Source: a virus. From it: a DNA stretch of 64,000 nt. The stretch is from IMG/VR virus record IMGVR_UViG_3300047510_001751, positions 64,001 through 128,000 of that record; one strand, 5' to 3'. Shown piece after piece: positions 5,949 to 10,701 of the stretch. Each line of letters opens with the position of its first letter. The stretch's first letter is position 1. The notes beneath the pieces are model-generated. The model was given only the letters and a program-made list of their open reading frames with translations, had not been told where the DNA came from and ran no database searches. The translations under genes were made by a program, and so were the position numbers.

Positions 5949-8444
5949 CTAATTAAAAAAACTCATGAGCGAAATTTTTCGCTCGGCATTCCATCCGATA
6001 CATTCTAGCACATTTTTAAGAGGATCGTAAAATGACTTCTCAAATTGTGTTCTATAGTCCACATACTTATCCAAATTAAATTCTTCGGGCAATTTGCCAA
6101 AAAATGAAATCACATTTTCTTGGATGGGGTTTGGCATCTTGAGGTAGAGAAACTTGATCTTCTCTCCTTCCTGGATAAGAGGGTACTTGTGAGTAAGATC
6201 ATTACTTCGTACATAGTGATTATACAGTAATGCACCTCTGACCTGAATAGGCGTCCTCTCTCTATAAATCGATCCTTTAGATCCATATTTTTGTAATCCA
6301 TTACAACCTCGTGGAAAAGCAATATCGAGATAATTTTGTTTTCGAGTATCCTCTTTTATCTGCTCAATGAAATCAATAAGATCTTCATTAGTTTGATTAA
6401 TAATAATTGTGTAAGCTTTGTACAACTTGTCTCGAAAGTATGCTGGGGTAGATGATCTAGCAGTTTCCATACCACAGATTTTCATCTTTGGTTCTTTGTA
6501 TCGAACACCTTCACTATCCCATACGTTAAGAACATAACGTTTCTTGGCAGTCCAGAATCCACGATTAGCAATATTTTCTCGTTTCATTACCATTTTTTGA
6601 TCGTATGCTCTCACATAGTCCGCCAGTTCTTGGTAAGAATTTTCAATATACTTTTCAAGTTCCATCGAACAGATCTTATCAAGGAACGAGACAATGCCTT
6701 CATTAGTTTTCTCTCTTCCTTGGTATACACGATCAACCAAAGGACCCAGATTAAGGTACATAGAATCAGTATCACAAGCAATGACATAATCAACATTCTT
6801 AGTTTTTAGAACTTTATTAAGATACTGATTCATTTTTTGCTCAATCCATCGGATAGAAAGTTGACCCGACATTGTAATAGCTTCAGCAATCTCAAGTTTG
6901 TAATAACGAAAATGCTCGTTACCGATAGCACCATAAGCAGAGTTAAGTTGAATCTTACGTGCCATCTGAATATTATTACAGCGGGCAATCTCTTTCTTCA
7001 ATTCAACCGTTGGATTGTTTTCATACTCTTGCTTGGCAGCCAGCATTTTCTTTTTGTAAATAGTACGTTCCTCATAGATTTTTTCCATGAGTTTTGGCAG
7101 GAATCCTTGATACTCAGTTGTATAAAAAGTGCCATTAGCACAGAGAGTTTTTCCTGACAAGTCACTCAGATCAATCTCCTGGTTCAAAAGTCTATCTACG
7201 TTGGCATGGGGATGTCTTTCACTCAGAAGTGTTTCGGGCGAAAGATTATATTGCATAATTAAATGAGGATACAGACTGTTAAGGTCAAAGTTTACAACCC
7301 AGTCATACATTCCAGGTATGGGTTCTTTCACAAAAGCGCCAGCATACTTATTATCTTTACTGCTTTCTTTTTTGGGAGGAATAGTAATTTTTTGTTTAGC
7401 CAAGTATACGTATATGATGTTATCCCACATCCGAACCTGAGAATATACATCCTCAAAATTTACCTTGGCATCATATGCCATAGTAAAAGCAAGTTCAAGT
7501 AGTTTCATTTTATCGTCTAGTTTATCAACGAGTCGAACGTCAATGATGTTATACTTGACAAACTTATCCCAATCTTTAGTATAGAACTCTTTAAAAGTAT
7601 CAAACTCAGAGTGGTCAAGTTTTTTCTGATCAAGTTCCACAAAAGCAATATGATCGAGACGGTATGATTCCTGGTTAGTATAAGTAAATTTCTTATAGAG
7701 TTCCAAGTAATCAAGAGTAGCAATCCCCATGAGATCGTAAGCAAAATTCTTACGACCTTTAATAAAGATCTCTCGTGACATAGTATTCTTCCATGGAGAA
7801 AGAAGACGAGCTTCTGCTTCTCCAATCATTCGTTCAATACGACGATAAATGTATGGGATATCAAACAGTTGAACGTTCCATCCAGTAATTACATCTGGAT
7901 AGTTTTCCATCCACCAATGAAGAAATCCCTTTAGCAATCCAACTTCAGAATCAAAGTGAAGATAATTAACTTCCTTATCTTCATTTACATATGGGCGGGA
8001 TCCAAATACAGTAATCCTGCCCATGTCACTATCTTTAATACTGATCAAAAGAATCTCTTGGTCAGCAGATTCGATATCAGGAAATCCATTCTCGGCACCA
8101 GTTTCAATGTCCAAAGTAAAGACACGAATTTTACTGGTGTCGTATTTCATTTCATCTTCAGGATACTCCTCAAAGATGTATTGGTTTAGAAAACGTGTTT
8201 GACCATAGATTTTAAAATCATCAATATCTTTATGATCCTCAATAAATTGTTTGGCATCACGAATGCTACCCTGTTTAACAGGACGAACATTTTTACCATC
8301 TAGTGTTTTCCATTCTTCCTGTTTAGCGGAAGGCAAATATAGTGTTGGATTAAATTGTACTTTGTCTTGAAATTTTTTACCATTTTCATAACCACGAACG
8401 AGAATAGAATTTCCCGATTGTTCAACACTGGTGTAAAATTTCAT
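5949..8444 (-). CDS. gp43: Family B DNA polymerase (T4 gp43)
   Basis: Exonuclease DIET, polymerase [27 protein letters not shown]; no intein-sized insertion. Confidence 0.98.
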
Positions 8445-8728
8445 TCTTCAGATTCTTCAACAGTAGGTACAGGTTTTTCAATGTCAACCGAAGCACGGTA
8501 TTGATTGTATAGAAAATCTGATGGATCAGCAATCAAACTGATTTCAGATGATCTCACAATAAACTCACGGTCTCTGGCGTGGAGAGGGAAGGCACCCAAA
8601 CAGGTGCCGTCAACTTCATACGGGTATCTTAGCACACAATCAGGATCTCCGAACTCCACATCAGGAATTTCTTCAACTTCCGAAACAATCCAGACACCAG
8701 CAAATCTAATCAATTTAATATCATTCAT
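8441..8728 (-). CDS. Hypothetical protein, Sm-like phage family
   Basis: IKLIRF...IVSEV...CVLRYPY...RSSEISLIADP pattern shared with neighbours. Confidence 0.7.
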   Translation of the reverse strand: MNDIKLIRFAGVWIVSEVEEIPDVEFGDPDCVLRYPYEVDGTCLGAFPLHARDREFIVRSSEISLIADPSDFLYNQYRASVDIEKPVPTVEESEE

Positions 8729-9134
8729 TTGGCATCACTTCTGGATTAATAACTTTTTCAATTTCTTCTTGCTGAAGTTTAGCATTTTCAGTTTGTTCAA
8801 GTATTTTTTCTACTTGTTCAACTTTTGCTTGATATGCCATAGCTAGTCCAGGATCTGGTTGACCAATAGCAAGAATTCCGTCATAAGGAATTCTAAATTG
8901 AACATCGGTAGAATAAGGACACCACTTACTAAATTTAACTTGTAAATCTTGTTCAGGATTTTCTATGTTACCTACTTCAATAAGTTTTAATTCATAAGGA
9001 TGATTCATTACTAAGCAAATTCCTTTTCGATTTTCGCCTTCACCTTCAAAAACTTCTTGAAGAAAAGTAATTAATTTTTCTCCTGTTTTTAAAATTGCAA
9101 TAGATGGAGTATTATTCATTTTAAGATTCCTCAT
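8721..9134 (-). CDS. Hypothetical protein, Sm-like phage family
   Basis: ILKTGEKLI...LVMNHPY...FSKWCPYSTDVQFRIPYDGILAIGQP. Confidence 0.75.
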   Translation of the reverse strand: MRNLKMNNTPSIAILKTGEKLITFLQEVFEGEGENRKGICLVMNHPYELKLIEVGNIENPEQDLQVKFSKWCPYSTDVQFRIPYDGILAIGQPDPGLAMAYQAKVEQVEKILEQTENAKLQQEEIEKVINPEVMPNE

Positions 9135-9474
9135 TAAACATTTCAGGGTTGTTAATTATACTGTAATATGGTTCTACAGTTTCAATATATTTTTCCAGTA
9201 TTTGATCTTTTGGTTCTCCTATAGTCACAACGTAATCAAAGGGAACTCTAAATTGTAAATTTTTAGAAAACGGGGACCATTGTTGAAAAATAATTTTTAC
9301 TTCGTTATCGTCTACAGTATCTTTTGGGTATGTGTAAGAGATTACCATAGGAACTTCAAATAAGAAACACAATGGTTCATCCGTTTCTTCGACCATTAAT
9401 TCTGTCAATTTACAAATGATATGCTGCTTATTTTTCAGCATAACAATTTTAATGTTTTCCATAAGCACAGCCAT
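9121..9474 (-). CDS. Hypothetical protein, Sm-like phage family (start may be a few codons downstream, MENIK)
   Basis: IVMLKNKQHII...FEVPMVI...FQQWSPFSKNLQFRVPFDYVVTIGEP; clear paralogue of 8721..9134. Confidence 0.75.
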   Translation of the reverse strand: MAVLMENIKIVMLKNKQHIICKLTELMVEETDEPLCFLFEVPMVISYTYPKDTVDDNEVKIIFQQWSPFSKNLQFRVPFDYVVTIGEPKDQILEKYIETVEPYYSIINNPEMFNEES

Positions 9475-9557: not shown

Positions 9558-10052
9558 CTATTTATTAATCATATTTTCGCCAGGAAAATTAGAATTTCTA
9601 TCTTCTGTTAAAAATTGTGGGGTAGGAATATTTTTAATTCCTTCGATTGTATAAACTGTTTTCTTTTGATGCTCTGGCACAATTTTTTCTAATGAAATTG
9701 TTAACAGACCATCTTGAAATTCTACAGAGGATACTCGTACATCATCCGAGAGTTGCCAGGAATTATTGAAGGAACGTTTGGAGAGACCTTTGTGTAGGTA
9801 GATTCGTTCAGTATCTCGTTTTTCAACTTTTGAGGTAACTCGGAGAATGTTCTGTTCTGTAGAGACCTCGATCTCATCTGCTTTAAATCCAGCAAGAGCG
9901 ATTTCAATTTCGTAGTTATGGGCATCGTGTTTGATTAAATTGTAGGGTGGATAACTGGTGTTATGTCCAGACATTGCCTCTAGACGATTGAATACGTCGT
10001 CTAGACCTACTGAAAATGGGGAATAGATATCCCAAGTATATTTAGTTGCCAT
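9558..10052 (-). CDS. hsp20: Small heat shock protein Hsp20 (IbpA-like)
   Basis: YPPYNL...EIALAGF...YLHKGLSKRSF...W.LSD...A/V.F.DGLL.I.L alpha-crystallin signature; AAGGAG SD supports the ATG at 10052 rather than 10100. Confidence 0.95.
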   Translation of the reverse strand: MATKYTWDIYSPFSVGLDDVFNRLEAMSGHNTSYPPYNLIKHDAHNYEIEIALAGFKADEIEVSTEQNILRVTSKVEKRDTERIYLHKGLSKRSFNNSWQLSDDVRVSSVEFQDGLLTISLEKIVPEHQKKTVYTIEGIKNIPTPQFLTEDRNSNFPGENMINK

Positions 10053-10103
10053 GTGTTTCTCCTTAAGTAAGCGAGTTTTATTTGAACCCCATGTGGGCAT
10101 TCA
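10053..10103 (-). promoter_or_regulatory. hsp20 5' leader with ROSE-like RNA thermometer candidate
   Basis: CTCGCTT-ACTT-AAGGAG: anti-SD with UCGCU and bulged G pairs the SD; upstream hairpin; TGtTATAAT extended -10 at 10110-10118. Confidence 0.55.
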
Positions 10104-10124
10104 TTATTAATTATAACACGAGAC

Positions 10125-10157
10125 AAAAAAAGTGGGGTGTCGAAAACCCCACTTTAT
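10125..10157. terminator. Rho-independent terminator (possibly bidirectional) after regA operon
   Basis: AAAGTGGGG-loop-CCCCACTTT stem with T7 on minus strand and TTTATT on plus strand. Confidence 0.75.
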
Positions 10158-10282
10158 TATACGGTCATTAGGATAATATATCCTTGTTTTCTATACCAAT
10201 CAAGATGACTTTTCCCCCATGGTACGGTTAACCACTTAACTTGTTTGTCAGGTGTCATCACCATAAGGGTCATCATCCTCAT
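10157..10282 (-). CDS. Small hypothetical protein (41 aa)
   Basis: Hand translation MRMMTLMVMTPDKQVKWLTVPWGKSHLDWYRKQGYIILMTV; ATGA overlap with regA stop. Confidence 0.6.
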   Translation of the reverse strand: MRMMTLMVMTPDKQVKWLTVPWGKSHLDWYRKQGYIILMTV

Positions 10283-10701
10283 GATTCAGTTTTCTTTCTT
10301 CCAATATTGTACTTGCTTTCAAGAGTCCACTCATCCTTTTCTTTAAATGAAAGAACTTTGATTTGATTGAGAGGAGCAACATCTTCAATCTTTCCAGGTT
10401 CAACTACAGTGATGAGTCCCCAGTCAGATAAAAGTTGAATAATACGATTACGACGTTGAACATCATTCAACGAAAGGTTCGTATGCTTCCCATCAAGAGC
10501 AAATAGTTCTTTGAAATGTACAATATAATATCTACCTTGCTTGTGTAGAATATGGCAAGATTGGTAGATCTTTTTTTCTTTACGTGAAGCAACACCGATT
10601 CTCGTAAGGGTTTCACGAACTTTCAAAAAGTCGTCTGGCTCTGCCAGAGAAACCTCTACCATATCAGATTGTTGCCACTGGATTTCAATATCAGTTGTCA
10701 T
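10279..10701 (-). CDS. regA: Translational repressor RegA
   Basis: PDDFLKVRETLTRIG...QSCHILHKQGRYYIVHFKELF.LDG signature. Confidence 0.96.
   Translation of the reverse strand: MTTDIEIQWQQSDMVEVSLAEPDDFLKVRETLTRIGVASRKEKKIYQSCHILHKQGRYYIVHFKELFALDGKHTNLSLNDVQRRNRIIQLLSDWGLITVVEPGKIEDVAPLNQIKVLSFKEKDEWTLESKYNIGRKKTES

Follow-up and report, generated by a model that had tools for sequence, protein, structure and literature searches.

The hsp20 locus and its leader

The small heat-shock gene hsp20 is common to all T4-like cyanophages. The question raised by the locus described here is whether the short untranslated region (UTR) at the 5′ end of one such gene folds into an RNA thermometer of the ROSE type, as the initial annotation had proposed after inspection of the window (the whole stretch of 64,000 nucleotides that was analysed).

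The window is part of the 128.8-kb record of a T4-like virus of cyanobacteria. In this genome hsp20 lies in a replication module with the gene order gp44 (clamp loader), gp62, regA, terminator, hsp20, three DUF6561 paralogues and gp43 (DNA polymerase). The gene (9558..10052, minus strand; AUG at 10052-10050, stop at 9558) encodes a small heat-shock protein (sHSP) of 164 amino acids with an alpha-crystallin domain. The product matches Pfam HSP20 (PF00011, E = 1.1e-16), and 508 phage records hold homologues annotated as Hsp20. Directly upstream is regA (10279-10701; Pfam Translat_reg, E = 1.4e-45). The gp44-gp62-regA unit ends in an intrinsic terminator (10129..10155, minus strand) with a 10-pair stem, including five G-C pairs, followed by a T run, and the position of this terminator upstream of hsp20 is conserved in relatives.

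On the other side of hsp20, the three DUF6561 (PF20198) paralogues of 95, 137 and 117 amino acids stand in tandem before gp43 (8441-9474, minus strand). They are preceded by a consensus sigma-70-type promoter (TTGACC-17-TATAAT, 9512-9484), with its -35 inside the 3′ arm of a hairpin that follows the hsp20 stop codon.

Between the terminator and hsp20 we identified, from the sequence, an extended -10 element without a -35 (TGtTATAAT, TGTTATAAT; 10110..10118, minus strand). This element, a few bases upstream of the first hairpin, would place the transcription start at about 10102-10104, and hairpin I would then form the 5′ end of the hsp20 mRNA. Hairpin I (10084..10102, minus strand), defined by the minimum free energy (MFE) fold and by covariation, is G+C-rich, with the structure GAAU[G]CCC-ACAU-GGGGUUC (5′ arm GAAUGCCC) and a bulged G at 10098. 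It is followed by a single-stranded, A-rich spacer (AAAUAAAA; 10076..10083, minus strand) that varies in sequence and length among relatives. The 5′ arm of hairpin II is an anti-Shine-Dalgarno (anti-SD) stretch, CUCGCUU (10069..10075, minus strand), which was delimited by conservation and folding and includes the ROSE motif UCGCU (10074-10070). In the MFE fold it is joined by the loop ACUU (10068-10065) to the Shine-Dalgarno (SD) sequence AAGGAG (10064-10059) as 3′ arm (loop and arm together 10059..10068, minus strand). The SD is followed by AAACAC and so ends 6 nt before the hsp20 AUG.

The MFE and centroid folds both predict exactly two hairpins, with G10072 bulged in CUC[G]CUU and the AUG unpaired. 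This folding check returned the two hairpins and the bulged G10072 that the initial annotation had claimed, and its placement of the extended -10, the two hairpins, the anti-SD/SD pairing and the single bulged G on the minus strand was correct to the base.

Conservation and covariation of the two hairpins

Considered as a single sequence, the window leader folds no better than chance (z = -0.98; 31 of 200 shuffles folded equally well or better). With the same folding model, occlusion of the hsp20 SD ranked only fourth among the 20 SD-bearing genes in the window. Neither the z-score nor the SD occlusion within the window discriminates. Taken by itself, this z-score would be compatible with a chance hairpin. 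In addition, an open reading frame of 180 amino acids runs in frame with hsp20 from an ATG at 10100, a codon located inside hairpin I, and if this were the true start the “leader” would be coding sequence. Both versions of this explanation are refuted by alignments of 97 covarying cyanophage leaders and of a further set from other phage clades, and the probability that we assign to it is negligible. The structure exceeds chance because of this comparative evidence, not because of the single-sequence fold. Many relatives have ACG in place of the ATG at 10100, and in others this ATG is in a different frame. Protein similarity begins at the downstream ATG, and we regard the N-terminal extension as an artefact.

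A search with the Hsp20 protein retrieved 72 IMG/VR loci at 57-87% identity, and the leader was present in all 69 of these that included upstream sequence, in 50 distinct versions. RNAalifold, run unguided on related leaders, predicted the same two hairpins. Across 97 distinct leaders from three cyanophage hsp20 clades both hairpins are kept, with 97.1% of cells paired. Each of the seven pairs of hairpin I shows compensatory changes on both sides. The observed covariation was reached by none of 500 shuffles of these leaders, and the signal collapsed when the partner columns were slid.

Hairpin II is paired in 99.7% of cells in the same set. Its anti-SD columns are invariant or nearly so (CUCGCUU in 99 and CUUGCUU in six of 105 distinct leaders scored by pattern), and the bulged G is invariant in all aligned leaders. 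The changes in cyanomyovirus hairpin II are one-sided and keep a wobble pair, from C-G to U.G, or from U-A to U.G where the SD is AAGGGG. Support for hairpin II within cyanophages is mostly conservation, not covariation, as the helix is almost invariant, and true compensation appears only beyond the cyanomyoviruses. In the S-TIM66 clade, CCAC[G]CUU faces AAGGUGG, a compensatory change from U-A to A-U that retains the bulged G, and in Sphingomonas leaders GUC[G]CUU pairs with AAGGAC, which inverts the outer C-G pair. In the wider set that includes pelagiphages and Sphingomonas, two pairs of this helix have changes on both sides. The pairing of the anti-SD with the SD is conserved among homologues, as the original proposal required, and hairpin I covaries.

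We built a covariance model, R1, from 49 phage leaders. Both the window and the full 128.8-kb record contain a single strong R1 match, at hsp20 (10047-10104, minus strand; 55.5 bits, E = 3.5e-11), and the next best match scored 13.8 bits. One copy that ends at ATG+6 was found in 78 of 78 Syn9-type loci and 34 of 34 P-SSM4-type loci, sets that lay outside the training of R1 except for Syn9's own IMG/VR record (L173). In the window and in all related loci, the leader directly abuts the AUG of hsp20. A short leader query located the element upstream of hsp20 in the cultured phages Syn9, S-SSM4, S-SM1, S-RSM4, P-SSM2, P-SSM4, P-RSM4 and S-PM2, and also before hsp20 of the OM43 phage Melnitz. On other phage sHSP leaders, R1 scored 51.7 bits (Bellamy), 30.8 bits (pelagibacter podophage HTVC103P), 27.9 bits (a Pseudomonas jumbo phage) and 22.4 bits (pelagimyophage Mosig), and 56 distinct pelagimyophage-type leaders from IMG/VR carry the module. 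The viruses with this leader are some of the most abundant on Earth. In the S-TIM66/Aurunvirus clade (L237:225-250, L239-L241) hairpin I differs, and R1 barely detects the leader (9.7 bits).

All relatives have AT-rich, -10-like boxes a few bases upstream of hairpin I (TATAAT, TAAATT or TAAATA; ATAAATA in pelagiphages). In most pelagimyophage-type leaders (L246-L325) the T4-late-promoter-like ATAAATA is located just upstream of hairpin I, about 55-75 nt before the sHSP start. The same box is TGnTATAAT in the window, and TGnTATAAT, TAAATT or TAAATA in many cyanophages. Judging by these boxes, the promoter class seems to differ while the ROSE-like leader stays. Alignments of the leaders of relatives contained no conserved late-promoter box between hairpin I and the SD.

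A subset of leaders (S-PM2, L077:330-400, and L001, L005, L021, L023 and L033) contains an extra conserved hairpin, GATGGG...CCCATACGCT, which is absent from the window. It lies between the TATAAT box and hairpin I and may make this a three-hairpin leader, unless CATACGCT is the real -10. In one related viral contig, a sub-threshold match to the glutamine riboswitch (RF01739; L041:251-307, minus strand; 31.4 bits against a cut-off of 35, E = 0.006) occurs about 500 nt upstream of hsp20.

Conservation of the CTCGCTT region could also reflect a protein binding site, either a Pho box for host PhoB or a target of phage RegA. The sequence ATTCAAACTCGCTTAAATA upstream of S-PM2d130 (hsp20) was listed as a putative Pho box (PMC10976474), and it falls exactly on the leader element. 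However, PhoB showed no binding to the fragment upstream of S-PM2 hsp20, and the gene was unresponsive to low phosphate (PMC10976474). Conservation covers CTCGCTT and its pairing partner but does not extend to the upstream half of the predicted Pho box, and the CTCGCTT site is downstream of the -10 box. The leader assignment corrects the published Pho box reading of this S-PM2 sequence. RegA is a candidate repressor because regA is immediately upstream of hsp20. RegA sites are AU-rich and overlap the AUG. The SD-to-AUG stretch is the variable part of the phage leaders, so a RegA site is unsupported, and the leader also precedes sHSP genes of bacteria that lack RegA. We consider a protein binding site, of either kind, very improbable as the explanation for the conserved region. 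A reading of (T/C)GCTT as a T4 MotA-like box was rejected because a promoter there would fire into coding sequence and because, to our knowledge, cyanophages lack MotA/AsiA.

Relation to ROSE-type thermometers

Under the motif definition of the Narberhaus laboratory, a ROSE-like element pairs U(U/C)GCU with the SD, leaves a G bulged, has a stable hairpin on the 5′ side and keeps the AUG free (PMC3669281, PMC4152365). The phage element likewise is the 5′ UTR of an sHSP gene, with imperfect U(U/C)GCU/SD pairing, a predicted bulged G and a stable 5′ hairpin. The Rfam model ROSE_3 (RF02523) aligned with the window leader at 10047-10106 (minus strand) over its full length (model positions 1-69) with 25.7 bits (E = 5e-4 in a scan of 76 nt). 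Scores for relatives were 37.1 bits (E = 8e-7) for L010, 34.1 bits for Melnitz and 22-32 bits for the others. None of the more than 20 phage leaders scanned (22-37 bits) reached the curated ROSE_3 cut-off of 43 bits. The comparison with Rfam ROSE models that the initial annotation had suggested succeeded in part: ROSE_3 aligns end to end with the leader, at a score that lies under the cut-off. The window match emerged only in the 76-nt scan; Rfam scans that covered 401 nt of the window or the entire genome failed to show it, owing to filters and E-value scaling.

The ROSE_3 consensus and the phage leader have in common a GAUGCC...GGGUC hairpin with a bulged G, an anti-SD that reads ACUCGCU, and an unpaired AUG. 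Searching with a pattern derived from the consensus retrieved ibpA leaders of Pseudomonas, Azotobacter and Stutzerimonas, and seven such Pseudomonadaceae leaders score 44.6-69.1 bits on ROSE_3, above its cut-off. R1, although built from phage leaders only, matched all seven over positions 1-59 (17.8-40.1 bits, E = 1.5e-7 to 0.03). It also matched sHSP leaders of Sphingomonadales, a group that is among the bacterial relatives of the phage protein. Sphingomonas sHSP leaders with ROSE motifs are likewise below the ROSE and ROSE_3 cut-offs, and a ROSE_3 search in four Sphingomonadales genomes returned nothing useful.

In combination, the agreement with the motif definition and the reciprocal full-length matches with ROSE_3 members support the ROSE-like reading made in the initial annotation. 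That the leader structure exists and is related to ROSE is almost certain. By sequence comparison, the phage leader is akin to the short ROSE-like thermometers with two hairpins, though diverged from them, and is not a mere look-alike; the phage leaders appear to constitute a viral branch of the ROSE_3-type thermometers. Because none of the phage leaders scanned reaches the Rfam cut-off, standard annotation would not flag them, and annotation that depends on this cut-off would miss a whole viral branch of the ROSE family. Another Rfam family, “freshwater-2,” matched the window at 10050-10118 (minus strand; 15.7 bits) and L010:625-699 (20.4 bits), against a cut-off of 49.9. These matches were rejected, as they rest mostly on the SD-to-AUG stretch AAGGAGAAAAcAAUG. 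The “freshwater-2” consensus ends in a phage-like ribosome-binding site and may itself be a phage leader.

The closest counterpart is the ROSE_3 element of Pseudomonas ibpA. Both are two-hairpin 5′ UTRs (about 50-62 nt) before a class-A small heat-shock gene, with a G+C-rich hairpin I that has a GAUGCC...GGGUC core and a bulged G, a hairpin II formed by the SD and ACUCGCU with a bulged G, and an unpaired AUG. They differ at the end of hairpin II, which consists of three A-U pairs (CUU/AAG) in the phage and of CUGA/UCAG in Pseudomonas ibpA. The phage promoter is of the housekeeping extended -10 type (late-type ATAAATA in pelagiphages), whereas that of Pseudomonas ibpA is a sigma-32 promoter, and the phage element resides in a virus genome with cyanobacterial hosts.

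Like the phage leader, classical ROSE elements of alpha-proteobacteria (RF00435) have a U(U/C)GCU anti-SD in which a G is bulged and a 5′ hairpin of the form GGAYGCC...GGGUCC, but they have three or four hairpins with the AUG inside the last one, in contrast to the two hairpins and free AUG of the phage. ROSE-type leaders also stand upstream of the sHSP genes of Sphingomonadales, which encode the nearest bacterial homologues of the phage protein. In cyanobacteria, SD occlusion likewise controls the small heat-shock genes of Synechocystis (hsp17; PMC3074152, PMC4477652) and Anabaena (“avalong”; PMC4152365). The avalong element is ROSE-like and has two hairpins as in the phage, but its bulge is a U and its hairpin I is long. 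The hsp17 element is a single hairpin of its own class and, unlike the phage leader, lacks U(U/C)GCU.

The phage leader is thus nearer to the proteobacterial type than to the types of its cyanobacterial hosts, in keeping with the kinship of the phage protein to class A (PMC3827213). Cyanophage sHSPs were previously found to group with bacterial class A sHSPs and not with cyanobacterial ones, in a paper that does not mention UTRs or thermometers (PMC3827213). This grouping fits the capture of hsp20 together with its leader from a donor with a class-A sHSP.

Predicted stability and temperature response

Taking structure, conservation and kinship together, we consider it probable that the hsp20 5′ UTR of about 50 nt is a short two-hairpin ROSE-like RNA thermometer. 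Transcription would start from the extended -10, a few bases upstream of hairpin I. The stable hairpin I probably serves as a folding scaffold and as a protective cap at the 5′ end of the mRNA. In the weak hairpin II, CUC[G]CUU on AAGGAG would hide the ribosome-binding site while the AUG remains free. Warming would then open this helix of six pairs, weakened by the bulged G, and allow 30S subunits to bind. By this route Hsp20 synthesis could rise with temperature without a heat-shock sigma factor. The transcription start, the melting of hairpin II and its consequence for translation during infection of cyanobacteria are our inferences. The dependence of initiation on SD pairing may be lower in marine picocyanobacteria than in proteobacteria.

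The validated Pseudomonas elements provide a reference for this mechanism. Short ROSE-like elements of Pseudomonas have UTRs of 61-62 nt in which hairpin I withstands heat and hairpin II melts over the range 25-42°C, with 4.3- to 6.4-fold induction (Krajewski, Nagel and Narberhaus, 2013; PMC3669281). In these elements deletion of the bulged G locks the structure shut, and hairpin II alone suffices (PMC3669281).

Nearest-neighbour energies calculated for hairpin II of the window leader rose from -5.1 kcal/mol at 10°C to -1.0 at 42°C, with intermediate values of -3.8 (20°C), -2.55 (30°C) and -1.7 (37°C). When the bulged G was removed in silico, the values fell to -8.0 kcal/mol at 20°C and -5.5 at 37°C. 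For more than 30 sequence variants of hairpin II, the calculated energies differ little. In the same model, values for the Pseudomonadaceae hairpins lie between -6.6 and -7.8 kcal/mol at 25°C, and between -3.9 and -4.9 at 42°C. With a calculated -3.2 kcal/mol at 25°C, the phage hairpin II falls short of the validated Pseudomonas hairpins by about 4 kcal/mol in predicted stability, and its predicted stability at about 10°C resembles that of the P. putida element at about 42°C.

According to these energies, hairpin II may be largely open already at the growth temperature of the host. Either its set-point is shifted to low temperature (the hosts live at 5-28°C), or it acts as a leaky element or damper. 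Given the weak predicted helix, we would expect a modest, few-fold response over about 10-30°C, not a switch between 30 and 42°C. The folding model overstates effects (for P. putida it predicts a change in open fraction of about 200-fold, against a measured induction of 4.3-fold), so the response should be few-fold at most. Within these bounds, we consider a physiologically meaningful temperature response fairly likely.

The alternative is that an inherited ROSE-type structure now functions as a fixed translational damper and mRNA stabiliser, with hairpin I protecting the 5′ end and hairpin II setting a low, constant initiation rate, and without an ecologically meaningful temperature response. 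The marginal predicted stability of hairpin II at 20-25°C, so far below that of validated thermometers, would suit a damper. Moreover, one and the same hairpin II sequence occurs whether the phages infect warm-water Prochlorococcus, temperate Synechococcus or freshwater hosts, with no tuning to habitat seen, and hsp20 is a core cyanophage gene with a proposed routine role in capsid assembly (PMC3037559). However, a simple damper would need neither the bulged G nor the exact U(U/C)GCU motif, yet all leaders retain both, even in very divergent phages. In Pseudomonas and Anabaena, induction is lost when the bulged residue (G39 and U90, respectively) is deleted (PMC3669281, PMC4152365). In addition, a helix as weak as hairpin II must change its occupancy over 10-30°C. 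We therefore consider a fixed damper unlikely.

A stronger form of the thermometer reading is that the leader is maintained actively as a sensor instead of being baggage that came with the gene, and that the three A-U pairs re-tuned it to lakes and oceans at 10-30°C. We put this forward tentatively, as a possibility that is more doubtful than the temperature response itself. If it were true, the dose of a core chaperone, and hence burst size or the temperature limits of infection, would be tied to water temperature. The leader, present in cyanomyoviruses, pelagiphages and OM43 phages, would then rank with the most abundant marine RNA thermometers, and it would represent post-transcriptional phage control of chaperones in hosts without sigma-32. 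As the leader is always on the hsp20 mRNA and is kin to a validated class of thermometers, it offers a testable route by which temperature could enter the infection programme.

The initial annotation knew of no description of such a thermometer in cyanophages, and full-text searches, in a literature that they cover incompletely, found no publication describing one. A review from 2024 only speculates that viral RNAs might behave like thermometers. The proposed function of the hsp20 leader has a phage counterpart, which we take to be unrelated to the leader in sequence, structure and target gene. This is the phage lambda cIII thermometer (Rfam Lambda_thermo), a phage mRNA whose translation depends on a temperature-sensitive structure. 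In the cIII mRNA the control consists of a switch from one to the other of two alternative structures, with greater activity at lower temperature.
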